Shown here: positions 7,760 to 63,018 of the stretch, piece after piece
How positions within the stretch are numbered: position 1 is the stretch's first letter
How the letters are laid out: every line of letters starts with the position of its first letter
NCBI GenBank assembly: GCA_030867685.1
Contig: JAQOWU010000007.1
Span: 2,294,001-2,358,000 of the forward strand
Direction: 5' to 3'
Source: Wickerhamiella versatilis
Taxonomy: Eukaryota
Length of the DNA: 64,000 nucleotides
Notes under the pieces: generated by a model
The model's input: the letters and a program-made list of their open reading frames with translations, nothing else
What the model was told of the DNA's origin: nothing
Database searches by the model: none
Made by a program: the position numbers and the translations under genes

Positions 7760-7784
7760 TGGGCTATCTTGCATTGTCCAACCA
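7760..7784 (+). repeat. Dispersed 25-bp element, copy 1
   Basis: TGGGCTATCTTGCATTGTCCAACCA; 7759-7787 is identical over 29 bp to 62993-63021. Confidence 0.9.
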
Positions 7785-7952
7785 GTCCCAGACCTGGCGT
7801 TGTCGAACCAGTCTTAGTTAGCCCAGGGAGCACCAGGATAGACTTTGCGCTGATGATGGCAATGTACAAATCGCTTTCGCCGCCAGACACAAATCAACTG
7901 AAAAGAATTTATACATTTATTAGATTATGCGCCCTAAGCATGCTAAAATACA

Positions 7953-9599
7953 TTATTCGAATATAAGCTTATCTACCGTTCTGGGAAGGTTCTTCAACTT
8001 CCACGAGTCCTTTGAAAGCTCCTCTTTTTCCATTTCATCTTCTGTATACAGGCGTCTCATACTGTCATCCAATTTGACATCCTCGGCTTTCACATAGAAT
8101 GGGCCGCGGTACCACAGTTTCAACCCTACATAGAGTACAACAATAAGAACCATCGACAGAAAATTCGCAAAAAAGTTTTTAGCACTGGACTTTTCATGTA
8201 GAGGGAAAATTGCAAGATAAAAGACATCAACGATAATTATAATCATCAGTAAAAGACCATAGTATGAGCCATAGGCTGCGATCCAAGACTTCCATGGGAG
8301 ATCATTGACATTGCGCCCCTGCTTTTTCCATGCATAGCGCATTCGGATGCTGCAGATAAAAATCGTTGCCCACAAAAAGTTATATCCCAGAGTCATTAAA
8401 TCAACAAACCAGCCAAAGACCTGTGAAGCCTGATCTGAAACGTTTAAATAGCTCAGGCCACCACCAACTACTGCAGTCACAATTAAACCGCCCCATGGTC
8501 TGCCCCATCGATCTGTCCTAGCGAAAATTTTAGGCATATAGCCAAGGGTTGCAAGCCCGTGGAGCTGGCGGGAGCCTCCAAAAAGATAAGCGCATCCTGC
8601 AGAAATCACACTAACCAGAATAATTCCGTTCATGACATGAGCCAGCCCCGGGAGCTCGCCCTTTTTAAATGCGATTGTGAATGGTGAGGCGCCTGTTCCA
8701 GAGGCATTGAGACGAGGATCTCCGGGATCATTCGTGATCGTAACCATCATGACACCGATAACGTAAAATAAAGTCATACGGAGCCAGATTGAATTTACAG
8801 CCTTTGGAACACTTTTAAATGGGTTTTTAGCCTCTGGGGCAATAACAGCAGTGAACTCTATACCTCCAACAGACCATCCAGCGATTGCAAATGACTTGAG
8901 GAAACCCTTGAAACCCATTGTAAACGGCTGTGTTCTCCAGAAATGGAAACCTTCATCAAGTCGACAGGACACAATTATGCAGGCAATGATCACCACAAAA
9001 ATCCAAATAAACTTCAACGTGGCCTCCCAAGTCTCGATTTCACCAAAGACTGTCACTCCAAAAAGGTTGGTAATTACCATGATAGCCAGGAAAATTGTTA
9101 GCCATCCAGCTACTGGAACAGCATCAGCATGTCCACCACCCATATTATCTGTATTAGTCCAATAATGGACCACCGTGTTTGCGGCAGTAATTTCATTTGC
9201 AAAATTCAGAACAAAAACTAACCAGTAATCGAATCCAACAGTAATTGCCCATGCTTTGTCAATGAACTTATGGGCCCATTGGACAAAGGGAGCAGGGACT
9301 GGATAGAGTACTGCAAGCTCGCCAACAGCATTACTGACACAGATCGCGCCCGTCACCAATATCACCCATGACAACCAGCATCCGACCGGGCCACCAACTT
9401 TGAGCTGCTGAGCTGTTCCCAACCACAAACTCATTCCAATACTATTGCCCAATGTGATCATCACAATGTGCCTTGTTGACAGCTTATGGGCTAGATGGTT
9501 CCTGCTAGCTTGGCTTTCTGTATCACTAGAGGCTATACTCTTCGTCACATGAAGGCTTTTTTCACTAGTTAGATCACCCGAGCCATAAGACGCCGACAT
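7953..9599 (-). CDS. Amino acid permease (YAT/APC), tandem copy 2
   Basis: 548 aa, same length as and highly similar to 5514-7160 (constant offset 2439 bp). Confidence 0.95.
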   Translation of the reverse strand: MSASYGSGDLTSEKSLHVTKSIASSDTESQASRNHLAHKLSTRHIVMITLGNSIGMSLWLGTAQQLKVGGPVGCWLSWVILVTGAICVSNAVGELAVLYPVPAPFVQWAHKFIDKAWAITVGFDYWLVFVLNFANEITAANTVVHYWTNTDNMGGGHADAVPVAGWLTIFLAIMVITNLFGVTVFGEIETWEATLKFIWIFVVIIACIIVSCRLDEGFHFWRTQPFTMGFKGFLKSFAIAGWSVGGIEFTAVIAPEAKNPFKSVPKAVNSIWLRMTLFYVIGVMMVTITNDPGDPRLNASGTGASPFTIAFKKGELPGLAHVMNGIILVSVISAGCAYLFGGSRQLHGLATLGYMPKIFARTDRWGRPWGGLIVTAVVGGGLSYLNVSDQASQVFGWFVDLMTLGYNFLWATIFICSIRMRYAWKKQGRNVNDLPWKSWIAAYGSYYGLLLMIIIIVDVFYLAIFPLHEKSSAKNFFANFLSMVLIVVLYVGLKLWYRGPFYVKAEDVKLDDSMRRLYTEDEMEKEELSKDSWKLKNLPRTVDKLIFE

Positions 9600-10101
9600 T
9601 CTGCAGGCGGATAAAAATCATATAGCTACATTAGCAGATATATATGCGGAGTATGATTCCTATTACTAACAAAAATTTCACCAGGTACTTCATCGTGTCA
9701 TTAACCCTGAAGCTTGTTACATTTCGGGGTCTATACCGAATAACAACATGAATAAAATTTTTAGCTGGGAGCTGAACCCTTTTAATTGAGACCTAGGCTC
9801 ATGTTGAATGTTTTACTATAGATTTTTTCCATCACATAAGACGTGACATTTGTTCTTATGAAATGCATGACATTATCGGTAAGGAACTAGCGCAGGGCGG
9901 GTGGGCCTCACTTAGTGACCTTTTTTTTAGTGGGCACGAGGGAAAATCCTGGAAAAATTCTTTAATTATGTATGAATAGTGTCAGGGAAGAGGCAGGAAA
10001 TTGAATGCCCGTTTTAAGCCGAACTGATTACATACCTGCTTGGAAAACTCCTCCTCTCCATTATACGACGTCTGAAAAGAAATAACTTAGTCATAAATTA
10101 G

Positions 10102-11882: not shown

Positions 11883-12968
11883 CTATGTAGGGGCCCACGC
11901 AGCAGATAGCATGGACTCAAGTAGTTGCAGGTAGTTCCATCCATCAGCCTTGGCGGCAATCAGACACAGTGAGTCTTGGTTCTCACGGCCAGGACGTCCA
12001 GCGCCTGTCATGTTGGGCTTCATGTTAAGATCAAAGAGAAAATATTGACCACTACTATCAGCACGGCAGTCGATTCTTATGGGTGCTCTCGCCTTAACAA
12101 TCTCAGCAGCCTTTTCGCAGCTCTCAATGACGTGCTGAAAGGCAGGCTGCGTAACCTCGTCGCTAGATACGGCGGTGCTGTTAAAAACAACTGGAACCGA
12201 GCCATTGTATGGTGCGATGCCATTTTCGTGATTTGTACGCCTAACGGGCCGCAATGCCCAGGGCTTAGCGCTCTTAGCACCAGAGAGATTGATACTTCCC
12301 GCGGGCATCACGGTAATTGTAATCTCATCACCATTGAGGCACTGCTCTATCATTAGCGATGCGCCAAATTCCTCATCGGAGAGTAGTTCATTTCCTGCAG
12401 CCACCAGTTCGTCAAATGTGCCGGTTAGAGTGACGCCCTGGCTTCCGCGGCCCCTGATAGGCTTTACGACGAGAGGAAAACTCAAACCATGATATGCAAG
12501 AGTATCCGGAGTCAACTGTTCAAACTGAGGCTTATCAACAATAATTGACTGGGCCACAGACAAACCTTCATCCCGAAGCAGCTGATTGGTAATGTATTTA
12601 TCATCCCTGTCTTGGACATTCGAGGGTTCTTGCCCCACAATATACGTGTTTCCCTGAATATTTTCCAGCGGGTGGCCTCTAAAAACTACGGTATTTGCCC
12701 AGAGCACACCTGCACCCTTGTAAATTGCAGATTCAATGCCCTCAGCTGTATCTGGAAATACCCAATTCAGGGGAACGTTTGCGTTGGGCTCAGGTAGCGG
12801 GGTGACGACTGTGTAGCCACCACGCTTTAGTGCGTAGCCAATATCAGCGCCACTATCCGAGTAGCCCCCAGGCTTTGGGCTCTTCCGCAACCCGCCAATT
12901 GTGGGTGGTGCTAGAGCCTGGTATAGAATAGCAACTTTGTGCCGCATCATGTTCGTCATGACTTTCAT
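11883..12968 (-). CDS. Stand-alone ATP-grasp carboxylate-amine ligase (D-Ala-D-Ala-ligase-like fold), substrate unknown
   Basis: DDKY, FPLVVKPIRGRGSQGV, MIEQCLNGDEITITV, IRIDCR..YFLFDLNMKPNMT ATP-grasp motifs. Confidence 0.85.
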   Translation of the reverse strand: MKVMTNMMRHKVAILYQALAPPTIGGLRKSPKPGGYSDSGADIGYALKRGGYTVVTPLPEPNANVPLNWVFPDTAEGIESAIYKGAGVLWANTVVFRGHPLENIQGNTYIVGQEPSNVQDRDDKYITNQLLRDEGLSVAQSIIVDKPQFEQLTPDTLAYHGLSFPLVVKPIRGRGSQGVTLTGTFDELVAAGNELLSDEEFGASLMIEQCLNGDEITITVMPAGSINLSGAKSAKPWALRPVRRTNHENGIAPYNGSVPVVFNSTAVSSDEVTQPAFQHVIESCEKAAEIVKARAPIRIDCRADSSGQYFLFDLNMKPNMTGAGRPGRENQDSLCLIAAKADGWNYLQLLESMLSAAWAPT

Positions 12969-13684: not shown

Positions 13685-16600
13685 ATGAGCGACGAAGAGA
13701 AGAAAATAGTGCATGATGCTGAAAGTAGCAAAAGCAGCGATTTCATGGCAGATGCTAGTGACACTCCAGTGCCATTCCAAGGTCCAGAGACGGACAGGAT
13801 GCGAGATCTCGCCAGGGTTGTAAGTCACTCTAGTACAGCGAACTCGTCGCGTACCTCTGTATTTGGGGATTTTGTGGACCCTTTTTCTTCAGATGACCCC
13901 CGTCTTGACCCGTCATCTCCGGAGTTCGAGGTAAAGTTTTTTGCCAAGAATATGATGCGGATGTTCCGCTCGGATCCTGAACGGTACCCCGAATCCAAGC
14001 TCGGTGTTGCTTTCCGAAATCTCTCCGCGTATGGGTATAGTCAGGATGTGAATTACCAGCTAACTACTGGTAATTTGCCTGTGTGGCTTGCTGAGCAACT
14101 TTTCGCAACGCTCGGAAAAGGCAGTTCTAATAGAGTGGATATCCTGAAACCAATGGATGGCTGCCTTCAACCTAAGGAGCTCTGTGTTGTGCTGGGTCGC
14201 CCCGGTGCTGGGTGTTCCACGTTCCTGCGAACAATTGCAGCACAAACATATGGCTTTAAGTTGGACCCGAACACAAAAATTAGCTACAGTGGCCTCAGTC
14301 AGCAGGAAATTGCCAAGACCTACCGCGGTGATGTTACTTATTGTGCCGAGTCTGAACTGCATTTTCCAACCCTTACTGTAGGCGACACCTTGGGGTTCGC
14401 TGCACGCCTTAAGACCCCTTCAAACAGGGCGCCAGGTATGTCCAGAGTTGAATTTTCTAATTATATGCGTGATGTCGTAATGGCAATGTATGGACTTTCA
14501 CATACCTTCAACACCAGGGTCGGAAACGATATGGTTCGTGGTGTGTCAGGTGGTGAGAGAAAGCGTGTATCAATCGCTGAGCTGGCCATAGCTGGATCTT
14601 GTCTTCAGTGCTGGGATAATTCGACCCGTGGTCTCGATGCTGCTACCGCATTGGAGTTCATTCGAACTTTGCGTTTACAGGCAGAGACAACGAGTAGTAA
14701 CGCTTTCGTCGCTGTCTACCAGGCATCTGAAGAAATGTTCGAGCTTTTCGACAAGGCTCTTGTTCTTTACGAGGGTTATCAAATCTACTTCGGCCCGATT
14801 TCTGAAGCGAGGCAGTTTTTCTACGATATGGGTTGGCAGCCAAAGCCGCGCCAGTCTACGCCAGATTTTCTCACTTCCTTATCTCAGCCCTCTGAGAGAT
14901 TGCCTAGGAAGGGATTCGAGGACAAGGTTCCCCACACTGGGGAACAGTTCTACGAGTTGTGGCGACAATCGAAGCTTTACCAGGAATGTGTAGCCGAAGC
15001 AGATGATTTCATTGAGAACAATAGTAGCTCTGATCCAGCGAGTGATTTTAAGGATGCTTTTCAGAAGCGTAAAGCGAAGAGCTTACCTCCTTCAGTCGCG
15101 TACACAGTATCGTGGACTGAACAAATCAAGATGTTGTGTTGGCGCGGCTTCAAACGCATGCGCGGCTCGCCAGAAATGACTGTTATCACGATATTTATGC
15201 AAGTGGTTATGGGGTTTGTTGTGGGATCGATGTTCTACAACTTGGACTATGATACAGCGAGTTTTTATAGCCGCACTGCAGTCGTATTCTTTGCGCTTTT
15301 ATTTAATGCGTTCTCTGTAATGCTTGAGATTTTTGCTGTTTTTGAGGCTCGTCCGATTGTTCAGAAGCATCATATGTATGCGTTTTATCATCCGGCTATC
15401 GATGCTATTGCCTCTATCTTTACCGAAATGCCGGTCAAGATTCTGACATGTCTGGCATTTAACCTCACCTTGTACTTCATTGTAAATCTCCGTCGTGAAG
15501 CAGGAAACTTCTTCTACTATCTCCTCATGATGTTTACTGCCACATTGTTCATGTCTCATCTATTCCGCACATTAGCTGGTTTTACTAACAGTGTGCCGGA
15601 GGCTATGGTACCTGCAAATGTGTGTCTTCTTGTACTTGTTATTTTCACCGGATTTGTGATACCCACTACACGAATGCACGGGTGGTGCCGTTGGTTGAAC
15701 TACTTGGATCCGTTGGCTTATGCCTACGAGGGGCTTATGACAAACGAGTTCCATAACAAAAACTATACATGCACCAATAATAACGTGACTTCGCAGTTTA
15801 TTCCCTATCCGCCTAATGTTGCGGCCCAAAAGGGATCAAATACCAGTTTTGTATGCCAACCTGTGGGCGCCAAGCCAGGCTTGACAACTGTTCTTGGTGA
15901 TGATTATCTAAATGAGCAATATTCTTACAGATTTTCTCACCAGTGGCGCAATTGGGGTATCATGATGGGTTTCACATTTTTCTCACTGTTCACGTATATG
16001 CTACTAGTCTACCTGAACCCAGGTGCACGAACCAAGGGCGAAGTACTGGTATATCCCCGAAATGTACTTCGTCGTATGTTGAAACAACGGAAACAACACC
16101 CAGAGGAGTTTGAACAGAAGGAGAAAGAAAATGTGATGCTTGATGCTAGTGAGATAGATCGAAAGCAGCAGGATATGGCTGCGAACCTCCTTGAGGCTTC
16201 TGATGAAGTATTCTACTGGAAAGATTTATGCTACGACATTAAAATCAAGGGTGAACCGAGGCGACTCCTCAACTATGTGGATGGTTGGGTGAAGCCGGGT
16301 ACAACAACTGCTCTGATGGGTGCTTCAGGTGCAGGTAAAACCACACTTCTTGATACTCTTGCGAATCGTGTTACAATGGGCGTCGTTCACGGGCAGCTTT
16401 TCGTAAATGGAATTCCCCGTGATGATGGCTTTCAGCGATCAACTGGCTATGCCATGCAGCAAGATCTTCATCTTGAAACTTCGACTGTCCGCGAAGCTCT
16501 TGTATTTTCGGCTGTCTTGCGTCAACCTCATTCAGTACCATACCAAGAAAAGGTTGACTACGTCGACAATGTTCTCAAGATTTTGGAAATGGAAGACTAC

Positions 16601-18262
16601 GCAGATGCGGTTGTGGGTGTTCCTGGTGCCGGTCTAAACGTAGAACAGCGTAAGCGCCTCACTATTGGCGTGGAGCTCGCCGCCAAGCCAAAGCTGCTGC
16701 TTTTCTTGGATGAACCAACATCGGGATTGGACTCTCAGACGGCCTGGTCGGTGTGCCAACTCATTAAGAAATTGTCCAGTGCCGGACAAGCTATCTTGTG
16801 TACAATTCATCAACCCTCAGCCTTGCTAATAGAGCAGTTTGATCGGTTGCTTTTCTTAGCTCGCGGTGGTAGAACAGTCTATTTTGGTGATATTGGTGCA
16901 GGATGCAAGACTTTGATCAACTATTTCGAATCTAAAGGCAGCCAGCCCTGCCCTGAGGATGCGAACCCAGCAGAGTGGATTCTTGATGTAGTGGGTGCGG
17001 CACCAGGTTCGAAGGCACTACAAGACTGGCCTAATGTTTGGTTACACAGTGAAGAGCGTAAAGCTGTTCGCGCTGAAATTTCTAGAATGATGACAGAGTT
17101 TGGTGCCGACATTCACAATGCCAACCCTGACAAGGAAAGTAAGAAAGAGTTCGCCGCGCCACTGTGGCAGCAGTACCTTGTAGTTTTGAAACGCATCTTG
17201 CAGCAGTATTGGCGAACTCCATCTTATATCTGGGCTAAAGTTGCACTTAATGTATTCAATGCTCTTTTCAATGGTTTCGTATTCTTTAAGGCTGATTTGT
17301 CGCTTCAAGGCATGCAAAATCTAATGTTCTCGGTTTTCATGTTTACGGTGTGTTTACCTACTATGATCCAGCAATATTTGCCAACATTTGTTGCCGCTCG
17401 TAACTTGTATGAAGCGCGGGAGCGTCCTTCGAAGATCTTTTCATGGAAGGCATTTATGCTGTCAATTCTCACTGCTGAAATGCCCTTCCAGATTGTAGTT
17501 GGTACTCTTGCGTTCTTGTGTTGGTATTATCCTGCCGGCTTTTATAGTATTGCTGACAATCCAGTTGTTGAAGGAAGCAATGGTAACATCACACAAATTG
17601 GAAGTCAGATGACTCAACGTGCCGGTCTTGTGTACTTCTACATTATTCTGTTCTATATCTTCGGCCCCACCCTTGGTCAGCTAGTCGTTGCTCCTATGGG
17701 CGATGCAGATGCTGCGAGTAACATTGGTATGATGTTCTTTTCTTTAAGTTTAATGTTCTGTGGTGTTTTGAGAACCAAAGATGAGATGCCAGGGTTCTGG
17801 AAATTCATGTATCGCGTCTCCCCCTTTACATATTGGATTGGCGGCGTTCTTGGTCTTGCCATTTCCAATAGCCATGTGACATGTGAGGATAACGAATTGA
17901 AGAAGATGATGCCGCCAAGTGGCATGAGCTGTGAGGAATATTTCAGTGATTATCTCAAAAAAGCTAACAGTCAGATGCCGGGAGCTGCTGGAGATCTTAG
18001 TACCGCATCTGATGGCTCATGTCAGTATTGCCCCACGGGATCTACTAATGCTTTCCTCGGAAGTGTTAACATTTTCTACCACGATAGATGGCGTAACTTC
18101 GGCATTTTCTGGGCATATATCGCCTTCAATATCTTCATGTGTACCCTCCTGTACTATCTTGCCCGTGTGCCTAAGAAATCCAGTCGAGTTGCTGAGCCGA
18201 CTGAAGCGGAGCTGAAAGCTGATGATCTGGCCTTAGAACAGGAAAATGCGGCGCAACACTAA
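13685..18262 (+). CDS. PDR-type (ABCG) full-size ABC transporter, tandem copy 1
   Basis: NBD1 GRPGAGCST, VSGGERKRVSIAE, CWDNSTRGLD; NBD2 GASGAGKTT, LNVEQRKRLTIGVEL, FLDEPTSGLDSQ. Confidence 0.97.
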   Translation: MSDEEKKIVHDAESSKSSDFMADASDTPVPFQGPETDRMRDLARVVSHSSTANSSRTSVFGDFVDPFSSDDPRLDPSSPEFEVKFFAKNMMRMFRSDPERYPESKLGVAFRNLSAYGYSQDVNYQLTTGNLPVWLAEQLFATLGKGSSNRVDILKPMDGCLQPKELCVVLGRPGAGCSTFLRTIAAQTYGFKLDPNTKISYSGLSQQEIAKTYRGDVTYCAESELHFPTLTVGDTLGFAARLKTPSNRAPGMSRVEFSNYMRDVVMAMYGLSHTFNTRVGNDMVRGVSGGERKRVSIAELAIAGSCLQCWDNSTRGLDAATALEFIRTLRLQAETTSSNAFVAVYQASEEMFELFDKALVLYEGYQIYFGPISEARQFFYDMGWQPKPRQSTPDFLTSLSQPSERLPRKGFEDKVPHTGEQFYELWRQSKLYQECVAEADDFIENNSSSDPASDFKDAFQKRKAKSLPPSVAYTVSWTEQIKMLCWRGFKRMRGSPEMTVITIFMQVVMGFVVGSMFYNLDYDTASFYSRTAVVFFALLFNAFSVMLEIFAVFEARPIVQKHHMYAFYHPAIDAIASIFTEMPVKILTCLAFNLTLYFIVNLRREAGNFFYYLLMMFTATLFMSHLFRTLAGFTNSVPEAMVPANVCLLVLVIFTGFVIPTTRMHGWCRWLNYLDPLAYAYEGLMTNEFHNKNYTCTNNNVTSQFIPYPPNVAAQKGSNTSFVCQPVGAKPGLTTVLGDDYLNEQYSYRFSHQWRNWGIMMGFTFFSLFTYMLLVYLNPGARTKGEVLVYPRNVLRRMLKQRKQHPEEFEQKEKENVMLDASEIDRKQQDMAANLLEASDEVFYWKDLCYDIKIKGEPRRLLNYVDGWVKPGTTTALMGASGAGKTTLLDTLANRVTMGVVHGQLFVNGIPRDDGFQRSTGYAMQQDLHLETSTVREALVFSAVLRQPHSVPYQEKVDYVDNVLKILEMEDYADAVVGVPGAGLNVEQRKRLTIGVELAAKPKLLLFLDEPTSGLDSQTAWSVCQLIKKLSSAGQAILCTIHQPSALLIEQFDRLLFLARGGRTVYFGDIGAGCKTLINYFESKGSQPCPEDANPAEWILDVVGAAPGSKALQDWPNVWLHSEERKAVRAEISRMMTEFGADIHNANPDKESKKEFAAPLWQQYLVVLKRILQQYWRTPSYIWAKVALNVFNALFNGFVFFKADLSLQGMQNLMFSVFMFTVCLPTMIQQYLPTFVAARNLYEARERPSKIFSWKAFMLSILTAEMPFQIVVGTLAFLCWYYPAGFYSIADNPVVEGSNGNITQIGSQMTQRAGLVYFYIILFYIFGPTLGQLVVAPMGDADAASNIGMMFFSLSLMFCGVLRTKDEMPGFWKFMYRVSPFTYWIGGVLGLAISNSHVTCEDNELKKMMPPSGMSCEEYFSDYLKKANSQMPGAAGDLSTASDGSCQYCPTGSTNAFLGSVNIFYHDRWRNFGIFWAYIAFNIFMCTLLYYLARVPKKSSRVAEPTEAELKADDLALEQENAAQH

Positions 18263-18520
18263 TCAGTAATATACCACTCTTTTGAAAGCTGGGCACTCCA
18301 TAATACCCGGATTTCATTCATATAATAATCAATATAGAACTAATTTTTTTCTGCCTGATCCCGCACTATTATGATCGTTTCCAAGTGAATAGCTTCTAGA
18401 CAGGTCTTTCATAAATACAGAAGATCCCTAAGAACGCGCTTGTCTAGGACATTGCAGTTTCTCTTGGTGTAATATCGTGAAGGTGAGTATTGTAACACCC
18501 ACACCCACGCCCACTTACAA

Positions 18521-18545
18521 TGGTTGGGCAATGCAAGATAGCCCA
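18521..18545 (-). repeat. Dispersed 25-bp element, copy 2
   Basis: Reverse complement reads TGGGCTATCTTGCATTGCCCAACCA (1 mismatch to copy 1). Confidence 0.88.
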
Positions 18546-32858: not shown

Positions 32859-32967
32859 TCTGCCTCCTTCAATTCGACTTTGACGTTCGGGGGTTTAGTC
32901 ATACGCTGAAGTGGATCCTTAAGTGCCAACAACTCTCAGCTCTTCGCAATTTTATCCTTCTTATAGA

Positions 32968-50878: not shown

Positions 50879-51670
50879 ATGAAACTTCGAAGTATCGCAA
50901 AAGCTTTGGAGGTGAAGCATGAGGGCGAAACAGACCAGACCACATACTTGCAGAACAAGGATATCATTCCTATGGACCGCAGAGACGAAATTGGGGAGCA
51001 TTGACTTATGGATTTTATTGGTCACTTTTGAATGTCAGCTTAGCTACTTGGTCTGGCGCTTCGTCTATTTTATCATTGGGTCTTTCTGTTTGAGAGACAA
51101 TGGGTGCGATCGTGATCGGTAATCTATTGATTGCATCCTGGAGTCTTCTCAACTCAGCACCGGGTGGAAAATACCATATAGGGTATACAATCAACCAGCA
51201 TGTTGCTTTTGGCATCCGTGGTTCTCTTTTGCCTATTATCATGAGAATTATCTTGTCAGTAGTATGGTATGCATCTGAGTCTTATCTTGGATCACTATGT
51301 CTAAATTGTGTTTTCGCATCTTGGAGCAAAAACTATTTATATCTGAAGAACACCATTCCTCAATCCGTGCAAATGTCAACCCGGCAACTTATTGGGTTGG
51401 TATGTTACCATATAATTGGTTACCCATTGTTGCTTATTCGTCCTGAGCGCTTGAAAAAAGGTATGACAATATGTGTTTTTTTGAATTTTTTTGTATTTCT
51501 GGGGATTAAAATCTGGGCCGTTCACATGAATGGTGGAAATGGTCCGCTTATGAGCTCATCAGGCAAGACATTGTCTGGCTCAGCTAGAGGTTGGGCCTGG
51601 GTCAAAGGTATCTGTACATGGTACGGTAACCTCTGCACTGGAGTGACCAACCAGGCTAATTACACGCGAG
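50879..51670 (+). pseudogene. NCS1 nucleobase/allantoin/thiamine permease (Fur4/Dal4/Thi7-like), 5' half only
   Basis: ATG at 50879 gives MKLRSIAKALEV..NKDIIPM; frameshift near 50980 into RRNWGALTYGFYW; in-frame TGA at 51091-51093; PGGKYHIGY..FGIRGS. Similarity stops at NQANYTR. Confidence 0.88.
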
Positions 51671-52592
51671 CCTGGCCATGTTCAAATACATAGAGTGCGA
51701 AAAGGCAGATGGCGTGCTGGCCTTCGAGATCGGTGGGGGAAACGGATTTACCGCGATGAAATGCGGATCTTCAGCAAAGCTGGATTTGCCAGTTGTCGAT
51801 TATGATTTAATGGGACGGGCATATCCCACGCACAACCAGACTACTGTATGTGCTCTCACTGGAGGACACTTTTGGGATGTGGTGTCTATTTCTGATTGTA
51901 ATAGAAATAATATTTTGATAACGGGTGCTCAAATCGATGAGCTTGTGGAGAGAATGGCGCGAGCAGCACTTGCACAAATTGGATGTTACGTGGAGGCAGC
52001 TAATACACCAATGTCTTCTAAACAGTTGGACCAAATGACGATTCATAATTCGCTCTCCCAAGCTTGGAGTATAGGAAGAGCTGTCTTTATTGGTCGACAG
52101 AAAATGGAGATAGATAGGCTACCCAAGTACAGTTTGGATAGCCTTGGTGGTGATGGCAAGATTGGACGTCAAATTTTCCAAGGGAAAATAGTACGCGTTG
52201 AAAAAAAGCTTCATATTGGCCAGGTTTACGGGGAGGTGCAGATTGAAGATGAAAACCAGAACTGTTTGAAAATTCCTTTCAAAAATGAGAACATCGTTGC
52301 TGAACTACAATCAAATGGTTCCAATCACTGGGATGTACTCACTTCAGTCCCCGACTTGATCTCTGTTTGTTATAGCGACAGTGGTGAGGCATGTGGTACG
52401 CCGGACTACCGCTATGGCATTATGGTATTTGTTATTGCCATTGCACCCAGCAATTTATGGACAAGTTCTGATAGAGCTCTTGCTGTTGGTGGACAAGAAG
52501 GATTTGGTCCAATATTTGAAGGTATAAGGTATACTCCAGTTGGCATTTATTCCGAGCCACTATCAGTGATAGATGAGTATTTCATGGCCTAG
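51671..52592 (+). pseudogene. 3' fragment of a DUF917-domain gene (C-terminal part of a fungal hydantoinase/oxoprolinase-DUF917 protein)
   Basis: EIGGGNG, VVDYDLMGRAYP, FQGKIVRVE, IPFKNENI, SVPDLISV, GEACGTPDYRYG. It begins mid-domain directly after the truncated NCS1 gene, with no promoter space. Confidence 0.78.
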
Positions 52593-53272: not shown

Positions 53273-53297
53273 TGGGCTATCTTGCGTTGTCCGACCA
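53273..53297 (+). repeat. Dispersed 25-bp element, copy 3
   Basis: TGGGCTATCTTGCGTTGTCCGACCA (2 transitions relative to copy 1). Confidence 0.85.
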
Positions 53298-53542
53298 GGG
53301 TCAGTAACAGCGTATCATGTGACTATTTGACAATTCACTACATGGTGGTGGAATCCAAGTTGACCAATTCAGAATACTGCAACATCTGGTAAGACGAACC
53401 AAGTAACAAGAAACAGAGAACATATTTCTAACAGGACCTTAGTATTTGCGGTTAAGCTACGCGCTAAAAGCTGAACGATATGATGCGAGTAAACATCAGG
53501 AGAGACAGGCATTACATAGATGCAATAATACCGTCATTGAAT

Positions 53543-53545: not shown

Positions 53546-53577
<32 letters not shown>
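53546..53577. repeat. (AT)16 microsatellite
   Basis: Perfect dinucleotide run read directly. Confidence 0.95.
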
Positions 53578-53579: not shown

Positions 53580-54423
53580 CAAAAGTAGATAGTAGACAAA
53601 TAAACTGGAAGGCGAATTCCCTACCAAGAGCGACCAATCACCAGCAAAGAAATTTTGTCATACCCTAAGCCTAAAGATAAGACTCGAATAAACGAGCTGC
53701 AAAGTAACTCTAGAGTAGCCAAACTAGATGCATGTGGAATAAACATGACAAAAAAATTACATTTTTATCAGAATCTTATTTTTTTTTCATGTCAAAACAT
53801 CTTTAAACCACTTGAAACACCATGCGACAGCACTTACAACGTCCGATCTTTCTTTGCGTAATCAAATATTTTTAAAGGAAAATAATAGAGCAACCCTTCA
53901 GATACTGAGGTTTATAAGTTTTTCCAGAATAGATGGACTATACGACGACTGCTGAGATCCCTTTACTGCACTTCTACTCTACCATTATACGAAATTAGCT
54001 TGAGATTAGTGAGATACCCTAGCCCTATTGATAAGGTTCCATCCATGTTTTGCACGCGACATCACTGCTTGTAGAGAGACCACTGGGAGCCTAAACCTAA
54101 ATTTATCGGTATTTTAGGAATGATTATTATTCAAGGAGTAAAATAAAATGTCTTTCGCGCCTGTGTCGTGATATTAGCAAGAAAAGTACCTAGAGGTAGG
54201 CCCGTCTAAGTCAGGAACATAGAGCCCTATTGTAGCCTAGGCTATACATAGGGTTCCATTTTCCATCTTTCGCATTATCGGAAATATTTTTTTCCGCTTT
54301 CTCCCTTCATAACTCTTGGACCAAATCACGTCAAATCTCAACCCTTCGTAGAAACCCTCACCCCGAATTTTCAGATATATCACGTCACAGTGTCCCAATC
54401 TAATTTACTTCTGTGAGTTGAAT

Positions 54424-57198
54424 ATGGGTATCAAACCCGTGCAGTCCGGCACATCTGTTGCCTCCGGGTCGCTTGATCCCAATAGGATTGTGCCCAATAT
54501 TAGTGCTAGGGATGTTGAGAAAACTCCTAAGAATGAAACTAATGAGAAGCTCAACCATATTGCTGGTGAAGTAATCACTTCCGAGGAATTTAGTATCCGC
54601 GAGGCAGCTTGCAGGAGATACGCCTTCTGGACGGCCCAGACAATACCTCCAGATCTGTGGGAGTATATTCTCACCCACATGGAGGATCGAACCTTTGACG
54701 AGTGGCTAGAGATTCTACGTGAACGTACTGAACGGTTCAGTGAAGATGAAAATGTGCCAAAGAGCTTCAAAGACTATCTCAGAAGTCTCTGCGATGGTCA
54801 ACCTCTTGACGGAATGTCGATAGAAGACTATGAAACTGTCGTTGAGTTCGAGGCATATATCATATATGACTGGAGTATATATCCACAGGTTCGATCATGT
54901 ACTAAGCCTTATGGATGGGAAGAAAGCGAAGATTATGAGAATTTCCGTACATACGTCATTAGTCTCTTCTTTGCCTTGGCGGCTTGCGCTTTGGATACCT
55001 TCTTCTATGAACGTAAACCACCTGTTTCTCTTCAAGGTGGTGCTATTCAGATTCTTATGGCAGGTGTGGGCAAACTCTGGGCGTTAATGCCGCGTATAGC
55101 CATTCCTATGGGCCGTGGCCGTGAATTCATAATAAACTCAGGAAAGCCGTGGAACTACAGAGAGCAAATGTTTGGAACTGTAGTGTTTGCGGTAAGCATA
55201 GGCTGTAATTGGGCAGAGGATGTCGCGATCGTCCTATCCAACCCGCACTTTTTTAATTTGGGTTTTCTAGAAGATGGCATCACTCCAGATCCCCAGGGAC
55301 CTGCGTCATTTGGCTTTGTTATTTTGACACAGTTGTCATTTGCCTTAACTGGTTTTGGCCTTGCAGGTATTATGAGAACATTCTTTGTGTATCCTGAAGA
55401 ATGTGTGTATTACGATACTCTTTACTTTAACTCTTTGGGGCGTTCAATGACAGAAAATGAGCCACGGGAAAAACCAGTTTCCCTAAAACTCAAAACTTAT
55501 GAAATGTTCTGGATCTTTGGCTGGTGCAACTTCGCATGGTATTGGATCACAAACCTTGGTTTCGAGGCATTGTCCCAATTCGGTTGGATGACTTGGATAT
55601 CTCCGGATAACATTGACCTGAATGCTATAACTGGTATTTCTACAGGATTAGCAATTAATCCCATTGCTACCTTTGATACGAATGTTATAGGGACAGGAAG
55701 CCAGTCATGTACATTCTTCTACACGCCATGGACTTGGCTATGGCAATGGCATTTTGGTGCTCTAATTGCTACAATTGGCATCATCGTTATGTGGTACACC
55801 AATGTAAGGTACACGAAGTATCTTCCCATTAATGCTCCTGATATTTTCGACAACACAGGTAATGGAACTACTTTTGATGTGACTAAGGTTTTGGACGAGA
55901 ACAATGCTTTCGACGATTCGAGCTATCAGCAGTATAGTCAACCATACTTTTCTGCTGGGTACCTTCTTACTTATGGCGTTTCTTTCATGTATATGCCCGC
56001 TGTAGTTGTATGGATGATACTTTATAAGTGGAAACTTATGGTCAAGAACGTTGGCTCTTTTGCTAAAGGCATATTCTCTACCACGAAGATTCTTGAGAAC
56101 TACGATGATCGATTCAGTCGTGAGATGAAGAAACACAAGGAAGCCCCCGAGTACTGGTATTTTGCCATGCTTTGTGTTGGATTTGGGTTTTCTATTGCTA
56201 CTGTGGAGCACTACGGTTTCGTTCAATGTCCTGTTTGGACACTTTTTGTTGGGGCTGCAATCGCTTGGGTGCTTCTATTACCAGCAAACACTCTTCGTGC
56301 GACCACAACCTACTTCTTTAACCCTTCAAAGTTTTTATCGATTATCTTCGGCCTGGCGCTACCACATAATGGCACAGGTAATTTGTTTGCCATGTACTAC
56401 GCGTACTGTTTTACTGAACAGACTGATAATTGGGTCGACAATCAAAAGATTGCACACTATTCTGGTATAAAACCGCGATCTATGTTCCGCGGCCAACTTA
56501 TTTCTACTCTGTTGAGCGCATTTGTTATGTCCGGCATCGTGACATGGCAGGCCCAAACTGGTATGGGAGATTTCCAACATTTCTGCACTACAGAAAGCCA
56601 CTCGAAGTTTGTTTGCATCAACGCAAAGACGTATTTCAATGATGCAGTAGCTTTCGGCACAATTGGACCACGCATCACATTCAACCAGATCTATCCGACT
56701 TTGAAGTGGACGTTTTTGATTGGTGCGCTTTTCCCTATTCCCTTCTGGGTATGCAAGGTGGTTCTTCCGATTCTTAGCAAACGTTTCCCTGAAAATTCGC
56801 GAAGTCGCAACATTTTGAGCTGTAGCTGGTTGCAATACATCAATGAGATTGTAATTTTGAATGCCGGTATGTACTGGGGTACATATAATTGGATGTACTA
56901 TTTCCCGAATTTTTATCTTGGCGCCCTGTGGCATTTCGTTGCCGAGAAAAAGTATCCTCGCTTCTGGAGCAAGTATTCATACATCCTATACAATGCTGTT
57001 TCTGTTGGTGTCTCGTTCGCAGCTCTATTCTGCTTTTTTGCCGCTCAATACAATCACAAGGTTAGTAAAGGAACTCGAACTTGGTGGGGAAATACTGTAT
57101 TTGGTACTACGCTAGATGCTAATGAACAGGCAGTTTACCCACTTGATGACCCCAGAGGCTACTTTGGGCCTGACAAAGGATCATTCCGAACCGACTAA
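54424..57198 (+). CDS. OPT-family oligopeptide transporter
   Basis: WSIYPQVRS (variant of SPYxEVR), KPWNYREQM, GFGLAGIMR, KIAHYSGIKPRSMFRGQ, GYFGP. First ATG at 54424. Confidence 0.92.
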   Translation: MGIKPVQSGTSVASGSLDPNRIVPNISARDVEKTPKNETNEKLNHIAGEVITSEEFSIREAACRRYAFWTAQTIPPDLWEYILTHMEDRTFDEWLEILRERTERFSEDENVPKSFKDYLRSLCDGQPLDGMSIEDYETVVEFEAYIIYDWSIYPQVRSCTKPYGWEESEDYENFRTYVISLFFALAACALDTFFYERKPPVSLQGGAIQILMAGVGKLWALMPRIAIPMGRGREFIINSGKPWNYREQMFGTVVFAVSIGCNWAEDVAIVLSNPHFFNLGFLEDGITPDPQGPASFGFVILTQLSFALTGFGLAGIMRTFFVYPEECVYYDTLYFNSLGRSMTENEPREKPVSLKLKTYEMFWIFGWCNFAWYWITNLGFEALSQFGWMTWISPDNIDLNAITGISTGLAINPIATFDTNVIGTGSQSCTFFYTPWTWLWQWHFGALIATIGIIVMWYTNVRYTKYLPINAPDIFDNTGNGTTFDVTKVLDENNAFDDSSYQQYSQPYFSAGYLLTYGVSFMYMPAVVVWMILYKWKLMVKNVGSFAKGIFSTTKILENYDDRFSREMKKHKEAPEYWYFAMLCVGFGFSIATVEHYGFVQCPVWTLFVGAAIAWVLLLPANTLRATTTYFFNPSKFLSIIFGLALPHNGTGNLFAMYYAYCFTEQTDNWVDNQKIAHYSGIKPRSMFRGQLISTLLSAFVMSGIVTWQAQTGMGDFQHFCTTESHSKFVCINAKTYFNDAVAFGTIGPRITFNQIYPTLKWTFLIGALFPIPFWVCKVVLPILSKRFPENSRSRNILSCSWLQYINEIVILNAGMYWGTYNWMYYFPNFYLGALWHFVAEKKYPRFWSKYSYILYNAVSVGVSFAALFCFFAAQYNHKVSKGTRTWWGNTVFGTTLDANEQAVYPLDDPRGYFGPDKGSFRTD

Positions 57199-59566: not shown

Positions 59567-60141
59567 ATGACTTATTTAGACAGTGGATGTTTTTATTCAA
59601 AAAATATCTATCAGTCAATTCAGCTTGGAAGGAGTTATCGGTTGGGAATCAGCTCAAGATTTTCTAATAAGGCTCATATAAACACGTATAAAAGCCGTAT
59701 TGTTTGGACTGGTAATTTGGGGAAAGCACGGCAGACTATTTATCATATCATAGAACCTGGGAGATCGATATGCCTGGAAAGTCAAAAGTTCATTGTTCAA
59801 ATGATCCGTTAATTGGTGGAGATCCTCATAAATTGAACCCCGAGGAACTATTAATTTCGGCCTTAGCTGGTTGCCATATGCTGTGGTATTTGCATTATGC
59901 ATCGGACGCGGGCATTGTGGTGGTTAAATACGAAGATACTCCGGCTGCTAAAGGAGAGGTTCCTGCTAGTGGCAAAGGGAATTTCATACAAGCGTTTTTA
60001 CGGCCACAAGTTACGGTTAAACGGGGAGCAAATCTGATGCAGGCAGAGAGGATCCATCAGAAGATACACAAGGTATGCTTCATTGCTAGATCCATTAACT
60101 TTCCCATAAAAGTCGAGCCTAGATTTTCAATATCAGATTAA
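59567..60141 (+). pseudogene. OsmC-family peroxiredoxin, bacterial type, split by a 1-nt frameshift (pseudogene or assembly error)
   Basis: Frame 1 reads TYKSRIVWTGNLG; the -1 frame continues ESTADYLSYHRTWEIDMPGK..NPEELLISALAGCHMLWYL..CFIARSINFP. The shift falls in the GGGG run at 59719-59722. Confidence 0.8.
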
Positions 60142-60160: not shown

Positions 60161-61906
60161 TTATTGCTGTAGCCAGGGTGGAAGCTCTCTCTCAACTGTT
60201 CCACGTACACCTGCATCTATACAGTCCTGCAAACTTCTAAAGTAGACTCCACGGCTAACCAAGCCCGGTGCATAGTGTGCATACTTTGCGGAATTTGTCA
60301 AAATATTCCTAGCCGAAGGAGGGATGATAGGCTCCTCAATCATACACCAGCAGGTGTCAGTGATTATTTTTGCCCCAAACCCCAATAAAATGTCTATGTA
60401 TCCCTCCTGTTTCGCACTTTCCACAATTTCGCGGTTCGATGTTATAACAAAGTCAGTCATTGGGTGCCTTGACCGTCCTCGGCAAAGATTTACGGTCTTG
60501 CGGAACTCAGAAAAGGAAAAGTGGGGATTTCCAAGGCAGACACAATCCACACTGTGACCCACTGCGCTGTTCAGCTCATTCCAACTGGATTTCAGGTCGG
60601 TTGGAGTGACATTGACCAGGGGTATTCCTTTACACAACCTATCTACTTGCTCAGAGGTTTTTGCCTCTGGAGTCACATAGGCTATATGATATACTGGAGA
60701 GCCTGAGGTGGTACCAAATGCTGCGGAAAACGCTTTCAGATCATCCCAGCTAGGTTTTGATTCCCTAACTCCCTGAATAATGGGAATTCTTCTACCAGAT
60801 ATTATGCCCACATGGTAACCAAGCAATGGGAAAAATGCATCATCAATATCTTTGGGTACATTGATGTTTATGCATAACTGAGGCCTTCTATTTTCCTCAA
60901 TGTGGGGTCCGGCATCCGGTGCTCGTCCCAGAATGGCAATGCATACATCCAAAAAGTCGGGGTACCTCGCCGTCTTTGCGCCAATAACGCTATTCGCAAA
61001 CACCACGGCATTGGATTCCGCCCACCCTATATTCTGTCCAGCATGTGGAGCAGACTGAAGCAAATACGGTGCACAGGAAAAGGTAGGCTCAGCACCCATT
61101 GCAACATACATATCAGCCAACTCGCTTGCCGGCACACCGAATGCGGGCTGGATGCCTAGGGATCGCCAATTCCGCCGATCTACCGATATTGAATTGAGAG
61201 TTGTTGGCACTGATACCTTTGCTCCCCATTCCAGCAGCTTTTTGGGGAACAGAAGACTGGCTTCGCCAGTATAAATGCAGCAGTCGATATGCGACTGGTC
61301 AATGTCAATAAGTTTTGATGCACCTTGGATCTCGGCCATGCGCAGGACTATTTCCATGGCAACTTGAGCTGCTTTTCCCTTGCCGCCATTCAATACCTCA
61401 ATGTCCTTATCAGCTAAAGAAACAGTAGGCTTTTTGTCGCTGAGCAGTGCCGGCACTGCATCATCGTCACTAGAAAACCTGTGCTTGGACAGTATCAATC
61501 TGTTCCCACAAACTCTAGCGGCTTTATACGCTTTCAGTTTAAGGAACTGGTCCATCGAGATACAGATAAGTGGAATTGACTTCCCACAAAGAACGGTGGC
61601 CAGTAAGCTACCAAGCGTTAATATTTCGTCCGCCTCGGCCAGAATTATGGCAGATGGAGCCTTATCGTGAAGAATAAGCTCGGTTAAAATGCTGCTCCCT
61701 GTACATGAGCCTCGTGAAATGGGTATTGCCAGTACCCGCCCCGTCACGAGCTTATCATGGAGGGCATGATGCTTGTCAACAATCTTCCCCGTTTTAGGAT
61801 CCACACCACCCCAGAAGCTTATACCCACCTCAGCATATAGTAGCTCACCCTCTGCTTTACCGGGGATCAGAGTGTGCCCGTCCACCACCAGCCTCTCCTT
61901 CTCCAT
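60161..61906 (-). CDS. Aconitase X, fused DUF126+DUF521 type (cis-3-hydroxy-L-proline dehydratase-like)
   Basis: SFWGGVDP, RGSCTGS, HIDCCIY, FSCAPY, WAESNAVVFANSVIGAKT, LGNPHFS, TDTCWCM, TNSAKYAHYAPG. Confidence 0.9.
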   Translation of the reverse strand: MEKERLVVDGHTLIPGKAEGELLYAEVGISFWGGVDPKTGKIVDKHHALHDKLVTGRVLAIPISRGSCTGSSILTELILHDKAPSAIILAEADEILTLGSLLATVLCGKSIPLICISMDQFLKLKAYKAARVCGNRLILSKHRFSSDDDAVPALLSDKKPTVSLADKDIEVLNGGKGKAAQVAMEIVLRMAEIQGASKLIDIDQSHIDCCIYTGEASLLFPKKLLEWGAKVSVPTTLNSISVDRRNWRSLGIQPAFGVPASELADMYVAMGAEPTFSCAPYLLQSAPHAGQNIGWAESNAVVFANSVIGAKTARYPDFLDVCIAILGRAPDAGPHIEENRRPQLCININVPKDIDDAFFPLLGYHVGIISGRRIPIIQGVRESKPSWDDLKAFSAAFGTTSGSPVYHIAYVTPEAKTSEQVDRLCKGIPLVNVTPTDLKSSWNELNSAVGHSVDCVCLGNPHFSFSEFRKTVNLCRGRSRHPMTDFVITSNREIVESAKQEGYIDILLGFGAKIITDTCWCMIEEPIIPPSARNILTNSAKYAHYAPGLVSRGVYFRSLQDCIDAGVRGTVERELPPWLQQ

Positions 61907-62087
61907 ATAAAATGGAGTATATCTTACTAATGAAATAACCAGCTCCTGATATACGGATTGTAGCGTAGGCTATGAAATCAGGATATCCACTAGCAACTAA
62001 ATAATATGCACGGAACCTTCGTTCTGTGCACCTTCTGAGCCATAGTTTATATCGTGTATAAGTATTATTACATAAGGGCGGGTGGTG

Positions 62088-62759
62088 ATGTGTGACCGAA
62101 GGTCAAATCAGAAGGATAGTGTGGACCAGGAGCTGGTTGAGTGGGCCAGAAATAATCTGGAAGGTATAATTGACGATGAGAACTACGCCAAGATGATTAG
62201 TGGTGTGGGATATGAACCATTCCTTGAGCATTACGAATTGGCCCGCCTCGAGTCCAATGAGGCCACATATGAATACCAGAATATCCGACTGAAAGATTTC
62301 AGTAATCAAAAAGAGTTCTTGGAGTACAGACGCCAGTGTATTGGAAATTTGTTTGGTAAGTGCGGCAAAAACACGTATGTGGAGCCCCCAATTTTCGTGG
62401 ACTTTGGATTCAACGTATGTGTCGGTGATAACTTCTACTGCAACTTTAACACGACCTTCTTGGACAGTTCGCTCATCATCATAGGTAATAATGTCTGGCT
62501 GGGGCCTAATGTCACCATTTCCTCAGTTAGCCATCCGCTCGAAGCCAAGGCCCGTCTGACGGCCATAGAGCATGCTCTTCCGGTACGAATTGGCAATAAT
62601 GTTTGGATAGGGGCGAACGTGGTGATTTTGGGGGGTGTGACAGTAGGGGATAATGCCGTATTAGCCGCTGGGGCAGTTATATCAAAAGACGTTCCCGCCA
62701 ATGTCGTTGCTGGCGGGGTTCCTGCGAAAGTTATTCGAGAAATAGATAATTCTGAATAG
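62088..62759 (+). CDS. Maltose/galactoside O-acetyltransferase (hexapeptide left-handed beta-helix family)
   Basis: VEPPIFVDFGFNVCVGDNFYCNFN, IGNNVWIGANVVILGGVTVGDNAVLAAGAVISKDVP, GVPAKVIR. First ATG at 62088. Confidence 0.92.
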   Translation: MCDRRSNQKDSVDQELVEWARNNLEGIIDDENYAKMISGVGYEPFLEHYELARLESNEATYEYQNIRLKDFSNQKEFLEYRRQCIGNLFGKCGKNTYVEPPIFVDFGFNVCVGDNFYCNFNTTFLDSSLIIIGNNVWLGPNVTISSVSHPLEAKARLTAIEHALPVRIGNNVWIGANVVILGGVTVGDNAVLAAGAVISKDVPANVVAGGVPAKVIREIDNSE

Positions 62760-62993
62760 ATAGAGGTGGTATTAATTAGCATATGTGATATTTCTTGATA
62801 CAAGATTAGGATGCCAAATTGGGATTCGTATGTTTAATTATATGACATTAGAAAACAACCAAAGGGCAAAACACCACCAATGTTAATTGTGTTAAATTCA
62901 CAGGATCTATCTATTAATTGACTATACCTCTCACTATATCTTAATTGGACTGCAATAGCAGCACCTTGCCTCTAAGTTTTACTGGGCGGCTGG

Positions 62994-63018
62994 TGGGCTA
63001 TCTTGCATTGTCCAACCA
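62994..63018 (+). repeat. Dispersed 25-bp element, copy 4
   Basis: TGGGCTATCTTGCATTGTCCAACCA, identical to copy 1. Confidence 0.9.

Follow-up and report, generated by a model that had tools for sequence, protein, structure and literature searches.

A nearly invariant 25-bp box in intergenic DNA of the yeast Wickerhamiella versatilis, tentatively read as a copied protein docking site

Background

What kind of element would place almost the same 25 base pairs in four separate intergenic spacers of a yeast chromosome, and does it act as DNA, as RNA or merely as a relic of its own spread? The locus that raises this question is a stretch of 64,000 nucleotides of Wickerhamiella versatilis (contig JAQOWU010000007.1, positions 2,294,001 to 2,358,000; hereafter the window, meaning the whole stretch analysed). 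Transposable elements are reported to be very scarce in yeasts of the Wickerhamiella/Starmerella clade, and none of those present has been classified (available part of the survey PMC13376923). If the box were abundant genome-wide, a compact eukaryotic genome would turn out to contain short dispersed elements of a new class, which would offer a handle on the organisation of spacers between densely packed, partly foreign genes; if it were confined to this region, it would be a local curiosity. A repeat-finding pipeline like that of the clade survey may miss a family of 25 bp.

Identification of the element

Searching the window with the consensus TGGGCTATCTTGCRTTGYCCRACCA and allowing up to three mismatches recovered exactly four matches, every one of them with 0 mismatches, at the same positions and on the same strands as in the initial annotation of this DNA (Table 1). 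The same search of 100 dinucleotide-preserving shuffles of the window recovered none. At up to eight mismatches the window yields seven matches, four with 0 and three with exactly 8, as compared with a mean of 2.65 in 20 shuffles; no match in the window has 1-7 mismatches, and the distribution is sharply bimodal. The shuffles and this bimodality rule out a chance origin of the four copies. The element is also the only 11-mer family that occurs at least three times in the intergenic DNA of the window (16,736 bp in 30 intervals), where we found no second conserved terminus family of at least 11 bp. Gene models built from open reading frames and Pfam matches place all four copies in intergenic DNA, as had been proposed, and no reading frame common to the copies runs across them, which rejects a protein-coding micro-exon. 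These observations confirm the four copies as a real, non-chance, intergenic multi-copy element in this yeast.

Copies 1 and 4, for which a 29-bp match had been noted, indeed show 100% identity across 29 bp in a blastn-short comparison, and 34 of 36 positions agree in register. The partial echo of copy 1 that had been reported at 7797-7811 is likewise real and extends to 7817: it begins 5 bp beyond the tail of copy 1, agrees with that copy at 17 of 21 positions (per-site chance 1e-7) and is among the three matches with 8 mismatches. Four loci could not have come by the same 25 bases independently; the copies must descend from one another, and on these statistics some copy-and-paste origin is required of any account of them. 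Such descent would have proceeded via transposition, retroposition or templated repair.

Table 1. Positions of the element copies and of the adjoining repeat run in the window, with their genic surroundings
Feature	Position	Strand	Unit, core changes and tail	Gene past whose end it lies	Gene facing it on the other side
Copy 1, 25-bp core	7760-7784	+	core plus tail 7760..7791; tail GTCCCAG	~170 bp past stop of permease gene 7953-9599(-)	600 bp upstream of permease gene 5514-7160(-)
Copy 1b, second, 5'-truncated copy (echo)	7797..7817	+	3' half of core plus tail		
(ACACCC)3.3 run	18495-18514				
Copy 2, core	18521-18545	-	18514..18545; T18->C; tail TTGTAAG	259 bp past stop of ABC transporter 13685-18262(+)	289 bp upstream of ABC transporter 18834-23300(+)
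Copy 3, core	53273-53297	+	53273..53304; A14->G and A21->G; tail GGGTCAG	681 bp past end of ORF 51678-52592(+)	~1.1 kb upstream of OPT transporter ORF 54418-57198(+)
Copy 4, core	62994-63018	+	62994..63025; core identical to copy 1; tail GTCTCAG	235 bp past stop of 62082-62759(+)	38 bp past stop of M28 peptidase ORF 63056-64000(-)

Unit architecture and gene context

Examination of the aligned copies revealed a unit of 32 bp in total, made up of the nearly invariant 25-bp core, which starts with TG and ends with CA, and a 7-bp 3' tail. Beyond the unit 13-17 of 20 flank positions differ in every pair of copies, giving sharp boundaries, and in blastn-short on the surrounding ±1 kb no other match exceeded 15 bp; a larger repeat enclosing the copies is thereby rejected, and the flanks are as unrelated as first described. 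The tail is homologous across the copies, with 9 of the 14 tail positions compared in copies 2 and 3 being the same as in copy 4 (p=0.002). In these two copies the tail has diverged more than the core (5/14 versus 3/50; Fisher p=0.0097). Decay in the more diverged copies has reached tail and flanks but spared the core, which suggests, if weakly, that selection keeps the core; the signal consists of 8 substitutions in two copies, and copies 1 and 4 may simply be younger. The empty range of 1-7 mismatches is as much in keeping with young selfish copies as with selection.

The spacers themselves are of more than one kind. The spacer of copy 1 separates two tandem amino-acid permease paralogues and that of copy 2 two tandem PDR-type ABC transporter paralogues, the neighbors of copy 3 are on the same strand, and copy 4 sits in a 3'-3' spacer between convergent genes, in agreement with the earlier description of one convergent spacer and two tandem gene pairs. 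With the nearest upstream gene as reference, copies 3 and 4 are in sense and copies 1 and 2 in antisense orientation. The mutual similarity of the permease paralogues ends 3 nt past the stop codon, leaving a comparison of their spacers as occupied and empty sites uninformative. A scan for bacterial-type promoters and terminators near copy 1, of a type not suited to yeast, gave nothing of note.

Hairpin and RNA readings

The initial annotation had drawn the element as a hairpin with pairing-preserving variation and had counted a structured RNA motif among its candidates. Each of the three variable positions does swap a Watson-Crick pair for G:U or the reverse, but a random transition keeps pairing with probability 19/25 and three in succession do so with p=0.44, so the pattern carries no weight, and the accompanying caveat that such covariation is weak evidence was right. 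Among the 7 proposed pairs 4 are invariant, 3 vary on one side and 0 on both, with just three distinct sequences to compare; there is hence no compensatory change, and the shuffle control on pairing was uninformative (500/500). The predicted folds of the four copies are no better than those of shuffles, whether as RNA (z-scores on the element strand of +0.35, -1.13, +0.63 and -2.19) or as DNA (+0.50, -1.24, +1.32 and -1.23), and the minimum-free-energy folds retain only the outer 4-5 pairs. ARAGORN detected 0 tRNA genes in the 64 kb, and Rfam gave 0 matches in the window at the gathering score; at E up to 10 it gave no tRNA match, either in the whole window or in the stretches around copies 1 and 2, with chance matches only at copy 1 (mir-217, E=0.42; a Tetrahymena snoRNA, E=1.2) and none at copy 2. 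With nothing from ARAGORN and nothing from Rfam at three sensitivities, a fragment of a tRNA, rRNA or snRNA is rejected. The B-box consensus GGTTCGANNCC has 0 matches in the window, and its shorter core GTTCGANNC has 5, none within 200 bp of any copy.

An element acting at the RNA level, namely a tRNA-acceptor-like microhelix that either functions as a transcript or was retro-copied from a CCA-tailed small RNA, accordingly has a low probability. It would account for the fact that all 21 cells of the 7 proposed pairs are standard pairs, that the three swaps hold on the element's own strand only, and that the copy adjoining copy 1 is truncated at its 5' end, a pattern typical for reverse-transcribed copies. 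The 7 pairs, 7-nt loop, unpaired A and CCA would further correspond to acceptor stem, discriminator and CCA, a comparison that we take to be one of geometry only; if the first T pairs with A21, this geometry is in register with a tRNA acceptor rather than one nucleotide out of it, as had been stated. Set against these points are the shuffle-like folds, the lack of compensatory change and of tRNA, above-chance Rfam and B-box matches in the searches above, and the mixed orientation relative to genes, which implies that the copies share no common transcript context.

A putative protein docking site and competing explanations

Given that the element has no fixed orientation, lies in spacers, folds no better than shuffles and belongs to no RNA family, it most likely functions as double-stranded DNA. 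It would then be a high-affinity docking site for a sequence-specific protein, the candidate binder being either transposase-derived or a general-regulatory, insulator or roadblock-terminator factor that parts neighboring transcription units. A copy-pasted DNA box acting as a protein docking site is, on the sequence evidence, our best reading, and we put it forward tentatively. Among the ideas first offered, a putative chromosomal element (origin, insulator or regulatory-factor site) is the one that would agree best with the observations. The element is, as claimed, longer than an ordinary transcription-factor site. Sites of that ordinary sort form a continuum of degenerate matches, and its absence from the window counts against the docking reading. 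None of the Reb1, Abf1, Rap1, Cbf1 and Tbf1 consensus sites occurs inside the core; only WGATAR, a GATA-type hexamer with 183 matches in the window, falls inside the element.

A selfish or passive micro-repeat without host function, be it an ultra-short non-autonomous mobile element or a repeated templated-repair insert, with copies that would look conserved solely on account of their youth, is possible if rather doubtful. It draws on the copy-and-paste origin that the 25-bp identity demands, on the absence of decayed intermediates in the mismatch distribution, on the near identity of copies 1 and 4 together with the truncated copy beside copy 1, and on the TG and CA ends. However, none of the four copies is flanked by a direct repeat at either the 25-bp or the 32-bp boundary that could be a target-site duplication, 10,736 bp separate the nearest opposite-strand pair that could serve as inverted partners (copies 1 and 2), the intergenic DNA holds no second terminus, and 57 Pfam queries on the ORFs of the window found no transposase, integrase, reverse-transcriptase or recombinase domain. 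The lower divergence of core than of tail would be unexpected under uniform neutral decay, and 25-32 bp is far below the size of the published miniature yeast elements, given as under 500-600 bp in the accessible portion of PMC4316626. For an LTR or solo LTR, which would have TG...CA ends, roughly 80 bp or more in length and a target-site duplication of 4-6 bp, the ends are present, but the length, the lack of a duplication and the lack of similarity in the ±1 kb around the copies speak against it. Of the mobile-element footprint suggested at the outset the copy-and-paste origin stands, while target-site duplication, nearby inverted partner and transposase are missing from the window; no LTR, TIR or annotated motif explains the element. 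Exact matches to the element number 0 in 185,579 bacterial and archaeal genomes, plasmids give chance-level matches only (E=4) and E. coli genomes none, negatives on which we reject a bacterial origin as a REP or IS terminus carried with transferred genes. A literature search with the sequence strings returned one irrelevant plant primer paper, and the strings are absent from Supplementary file 8 of PMC13376923, its repeat annotation. Overall, the element shows the hallmarks of none of the known classes tested, which are MITE/TIR, LTR, Helitron, B-box, the S. cerevisiae ACS and common regulatory-factor sites. A composite account, in which a nuclear ultra-short (25-32 bp) copy-and-paste element, the counterpart of REP elements and mitochondrial GC clusters, spread through the spacers of a region rich in transferred genes and had its core co-opted as a putative insulating docking site for a host protein, appears unlikely.

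The spacing of the copies brings up explanations of another sort. The inverted pair formed by copies 1 and 2 delimits 10,786 bp, and the direct pair formed by copies 3 and 4 delimits 9,746 bp; the copies could thus be recombination sites bounding cargo blocks, with a site-specific recombinase binding the imperfect dyad and integrating, excising or inverting the blocks. We consider this improbable: the two blocks are similar in size and carry genes with foreign proteins as nearest named relatives (~56% identity to Pseudomonas proteins for AcnX and ~46% to Aspergillus proteins for a permease), the core is an imperfect dyad, and insertion by recombination leaves no target-site duplication, but no recombinase domain was found in the window, just 4-7 of 8 positions of the dyad arms agree in the individual copies, the two pairs differ in orientation (inverted versus direct), ordinary fungal genes (ABC, OPT, Zn2Cys6) also lie in the blocks, and GC content is unchanged at the copies, with no compositional island seen between them. 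Spacings of 10.7, 34.7 and 9.7 kb also resemble those of yeast origins, and if this yeast lineage had a replication-origin or ORC recognition element of its own, the length would suit it by accommodating a multi-subunit footprint, as would the restriction of the copies to intergenic spacers of tandem (3) or convergent (1) and never divergent genes. The prospects of this explanation are slim, since the element is not AT-rich and its flanks not markedly so (AT 0.42-0.80, mostly 0.5-0.65), the S. cerevisiae ACS consensus WTTTAYRTTTW has 0 matches in the window, though the lineage's own motif may differ, and with 7 of 28 spacers divergent four copies would avoid them all with p ~0.32. Least credible of all is the idea that the chromosome has retained, internally, one unit of a long telomere repeat or a telomere-associated sequence. 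A length of 25-26 bp is within the range of long yeast telomere units, the second unit at copy 1 is offset by 26 bp and looks tandem, and the run that adjoins copy 2 is of the (GGGTGT) type; yet the unit forms no tandem array anywhere in the window, the 5' half of the second unit is degenerate, the tail differs from the start of a new unit, and the element has no TTAGGG-like motif. Such a motif is said to be retained in the telomere repeats of related deep-branching yeast families (available part of PMC12449055) and need not be this clade's own.

Comparison with known systems

The tentatively favored docking site and its rivals can be placed against several known systems. With the acceptor microhelix of tRNAs the element shares 7 pairs including a G:U, an unpaired A and CCA, and it differs from tRNA-like 3' ends in having no tRNA gene, T-loop, B-box or stable fold; eukaryotic tRNA genes do not as a rule encode CCA. 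The 3' end of a Helitron has a hairpin 10-12 nt before a CTRR terminus, and the element resembles it in having a dyad followed by 11 nt to a fixed end, no target-site duplication and unrelated upstream sequence. However, its termini (CCAG, TTAG, TAAG, TCAG and TCAG) fit CTRR in 0 of 5 cases, its copies share their 5' boundary, and the intergenic DNA holds no 5' terminus family. Possible resemblances to mariner-type inverted repeats, the mammalian rDNA terminator box, the histone 3' stem-loop and RFX X-boxes would be leads only.

In length the element equals one TIR, as in a MITE or solo TIR, and a transposase would read ~25 bp precisely. The TIRs of the yeast hAT elements Rover and Roamer reach 28 bp, and relic copies with a single TIR have been described in yeasts (both from the accessible portion of PMC4316626). 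In contrast to these, the element is accompanied by no nearby partner TIR, target-site duplication, conserved subterminal sequence or transposase in the window. Bacterial REP elements and yeast mitochondrial GC clusters, like the element, are 20-40 bp long, contain an imperfect dyad, occur as dispersed intergenic copies, lack a target-site duplication and show occasional tandem or partial copies. The element departs from both in being nuclear and eukaryotic and in having a hairpin that is not thermodynamically distinct from shuffles, and from REP elements also in its lack of exact matches in the prokaryotic genomes searched and of an associated transposase in the window. As for protein-binding sites, those of the yeast Reb1/Abf1/Rap1 class are 7-13 bp long and degenerate, whereas the element is 25 bp long, nearly invariant and without intermediates, and both their consensus sequences and the B-box of the TFIIIC-only 'ETC' sites are absent from it. 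It nevertheless shares with the Reb1/Abf1/Rap1-class and ETC sites a dispersed, intergenic and orientation-independent distribution over tandem and convergent spacers, and these sites act as double-stranded DNA, as we propose that the element does.

Occurrence and anatomy of a dispersed intergenic box

The degenerate 25-mer describing the core of the element matches the window exactly four times, with 0 mismatches in each case and at the places reported in the initial annotation, while 100 dinucleotide-preserving shuffles yielded 0 matches. Loosening the threshold to 8 mismatches added just three matches, all at exactly 8 and one of them the partial second copy (the echo) adjoining copy 1; 20 block shuffles searched at up to 8 mismatches gave a mean of 2.65 matches. 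Since only perfect copies or nothing are recovered, the mismatch distribution is sharply bimodal. Across the intergenic DNA (everything outside the ORF models; 16,736 bp in 30 intervals), the 11-mers seen at least three times, low-complexity ones excluded, are solely the element's own. This short dispersed element is real and statistically solid.

In-register comparison of the four copies showed that 22 of the 25 core positions are invariant, the variable ones being 14 (A/G), 18 (T/C) and 21 (A/G). The core is followed by a 7-bp 3' tail, in which 9 of the 14 positions of copies 2 and 3 agree with copy 4 (p=0.002), indicating that the tail is part of the unit; divergence is higher in the tail (5/14) than in the core (3/50; Fisher p=0.0097). 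Copies 1 and 4 are indeed identical over 29 bp, with 34 of 36 positions agreeing in register, and the 4 bases 5' of the core are common to these two only. Past the limits of the unit 13-17 of 20 positions differ in each pair, bearing out the earlier description of unrelated flanks, and blastn-short on ±1 kb around the copies found no further similarity. The echo also held up, agreeing at 17 of 21 positions (per-site chance 1e-7) and extending to 7817. There is no tandem array of the unit within the window.

Gene setting of the copies

The window (43.8% GC) has a dense, fungal and apparently intron-less gene content; the nearest named relatives of a PDR-type ABC transporter are from Wickerhamiella sorbophila (60% identity) and Starmerella bombicola (58%), which places the source among the yeasts of that clade. 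With respect to the gene that lies nearest upstream, two copies run in the sense and two in the antisense direction. The C/D-box-like layout downstream of copy 1 has no Rfam support, and nothing similar lies near copies 2-4.

Several genes of the window look foreign from their sequence affinities. The tandem amino-acid permeases have their nearest named relatives in Aspergillus and other filamentous fungi (~46% identity), not in yeasts. The best named relatives of the AcnX-type cis-3-hydroxy-L-proline dehydratase are from Pseudomonas (54-56% identity), and another relative reaches 94%, so that this gene is likely a bacterial transfer into yeast. Such genes agree with those passages of PMC13376923 in which the chromosome 'end' domains of the clade are described as transfer-rich and unclassified transposable elements as very scarce.

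Copies of the element and neighboring features of the window
Feature	Position (strand)	3' tail	Setting or content
Copy 1	7760-7784(+)	GTCCCAG	Between permease paralogues, ~170 bp past the stop of one and 600 bp upstream of the other
Copy 2	18521-18545(-)	TTGTAAG	Between ABC paralogues, 259 bp past the first and 289 bp upstream of the second
Copy 3	53273-53297(+)	GGGTCAG	681 bp past gene end; ~1.1 kb upstream of OPT transporter ORF
Copy 4	62994-63018(+)	GTCTCAG	Convergent-gene spacer of 296 bp; nearer stop codon 38 bp away
Echo (5'-truncated second copy)	7797-7817		5 bases past copy 1 tail
C/D-box-like layout	about 7852-7901(+)		TGATGA and CTGA boxes ~45 nt apart
(ACACCC)3.3 run	18495-18514		Abuts copy 2 tail; ~320 bp upstream of second ABC transporter gene; (GGGTGT)-type run on opposite strand
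Perfect (AT)16 microsatellite	53546-53577		Inside 46-bp palindromic stretch; ~250 bp downstream of copy 3 within 1.8-kb spacer
Tandem amino-acid permeases	5514-7160(-), 7953-9599(-)
Bacterial-type Pfam gene run	11883-12968, 26279-27784, 31111-31971, 32923-33627, 33727-35043		D-Ala-D-Ala ligase C-terminus, choline sulfatase, class IV aminotransferase, isochorismatase, glutamine synthetase catalytic domain
OsmC-like genes	28630-29310(-), 59716-60138(+)
Tandem hybrid histidine kinases	41576-44371(-), 44659-47283(-)		HisKA, HATPase_c and receiver domains
Overlapping ORFs	51100-51693(+), 51678-52592(+)		Each spans part of a family only; look like rearranged or decayed genes from domain coverage: one purine/cytosine permease (profile positions 47-226 of 440), other S-Me-THD-like (N-domain match from position 86)
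AcnX-type dehydratase	60161-61906(-)
Hexapeptide-repeat transferase	62082-62759(+)		Adjoins AcnX-type gene

Folding and coding potential

The initial annotation had described a hairpin with pairing-preserving variation. All 21 cells of that structure do pair; nevertheless, of its seven stem pairs four never vary, three vary on one side and none on both, and the shuffle control was uninformative (500/500). As a random transition spares pairing with probability 19/25, three harmless changes are expected with p=0.44. RNA folds of the 36-mers retain no more than the outer 4-5 pairs, which close an 11-nt loop, and the z-scores for the four copies are weak both as RNA (+0.35, -1.13, +0.63, -2.19) and as DNA (+0.50, -1.24, +1.32, -1.23). 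ARAGORN found no tRNA in the window; Rfam gave 0 matches at the gathering score, nothing overlapping any copy in the whole window at E up to 10, and chance-level matches or none when only the stretches around copies 1 and 2 were searched, ruling out a tRNA or catalogued RNA. Thus, with no covariation among the three distinct sequences either, interpretation as a structured RNA hairpin is not supported. A protein-coding reading is rejected, as no reading frame is common to all copies and crosses them.

Origin and possible role of the element

Identity over 25 bp at four unrelated loci is beyond convergent point mutation; hence, the first step of the history proposed here, relation of the four sites by copying, follows from the statistics. 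Over the 300 nt compared, the coding sequences of the permease paralogues share 81% identity, with flank similarity gone 3 nt past the stop codon, whereas the cores of the element copies, which sit in comparable spacers, show just 0-3 differences across their 25 positions. The copies are therefore either much younger than the permease duplication or constrained. Copies 2 and 3, which have diverged more, keep the core while their tails have drifted; uniform neutral decay would not predict this contrast, which weakly points to constraint on the core. The mixed orientation, the copy in a convergent spacer and the lack of any sign of a stable or catalogued RNA favor action as duplex DNA. The reading we prefer, though with less than even confidence, is that the core of this copy-pasted box would act in the spacers between genes as a docking site to which a sequence-specific protein binds.

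A neutral or selfish micro-repeat would account for the bimodal mismatches and the truncated neighbor of copy 1, but leaves the contrast between core and tail unexplained, and we consider it somewhat less likely than the docking site. Replication origins are very unlikely: the spacing of the copies and their intergenic class fit, but the base composition does not. Equally improbable is a tRNA-microhelix RNA or retro-copy, which the geometry of seven pairs, an unpaired A and then CCA would suggest. Slightly more doubtful still are recombination sites, for which one might cite the inverted copies 1 and 2, enclosing 10,786 bp, and the direct copies 3 and 4, enclosing 9,746 bp, with foreign-looking genes in both blocks; however, the window yielded no recombinase, the copies mark no change in base composition, and the dyad of the core is poor. 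A telomere unit, which draws support solely from the (ACACCC)3.3 run next to copy 2 and from the second unit at copy 1 being offset by 26 bp, is highly improbable, given that the element is without the TTAGGG-like motif said to persist in related families in passages of PMC12449055.

Comparison with known systems

With respect to mobile elements, neither boundary of the unit carries a target-site duplication, no opposite-strand partner copy occurs within 10.7 kb and no second terminus family is present in intergenic DNA; 57 Pfam queries, which took in 23 of the 49 stop-to-stop frames of at least 60 aa in intergenic DNA, returned 0 transposase, integrase, recombinase or reverse-transcriptase domains. 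Bacterial baggage is ruled out, since no exact match occurs among 185,579 genomes of bacteria and archaea, plasmids gave chance matches only and E. coli gave none. Judged by consensus sequences, the B-box and the S. cerevisiae ACS have 0 matches in the window, and no Reb1, Abf1, Rap1, Cbf1 or Tbf1 site lies inside the element; the only tested motif inside it is a GATA-type hexamer, with 183 matches across the window. The element resembles a Helitron 3' end in its layout of a dyad plus 11 nt, but differs in that 0 of 5 termini fit the CTRR consensus, by which this candidate is ruled out. Every known family tested fails in at least one defining feature and, judging from passages of the literature and part of the PMC13376923 supplements, the element is undescribed; pending a genome-wide census, we classify it as a short dispersed intergenic box.
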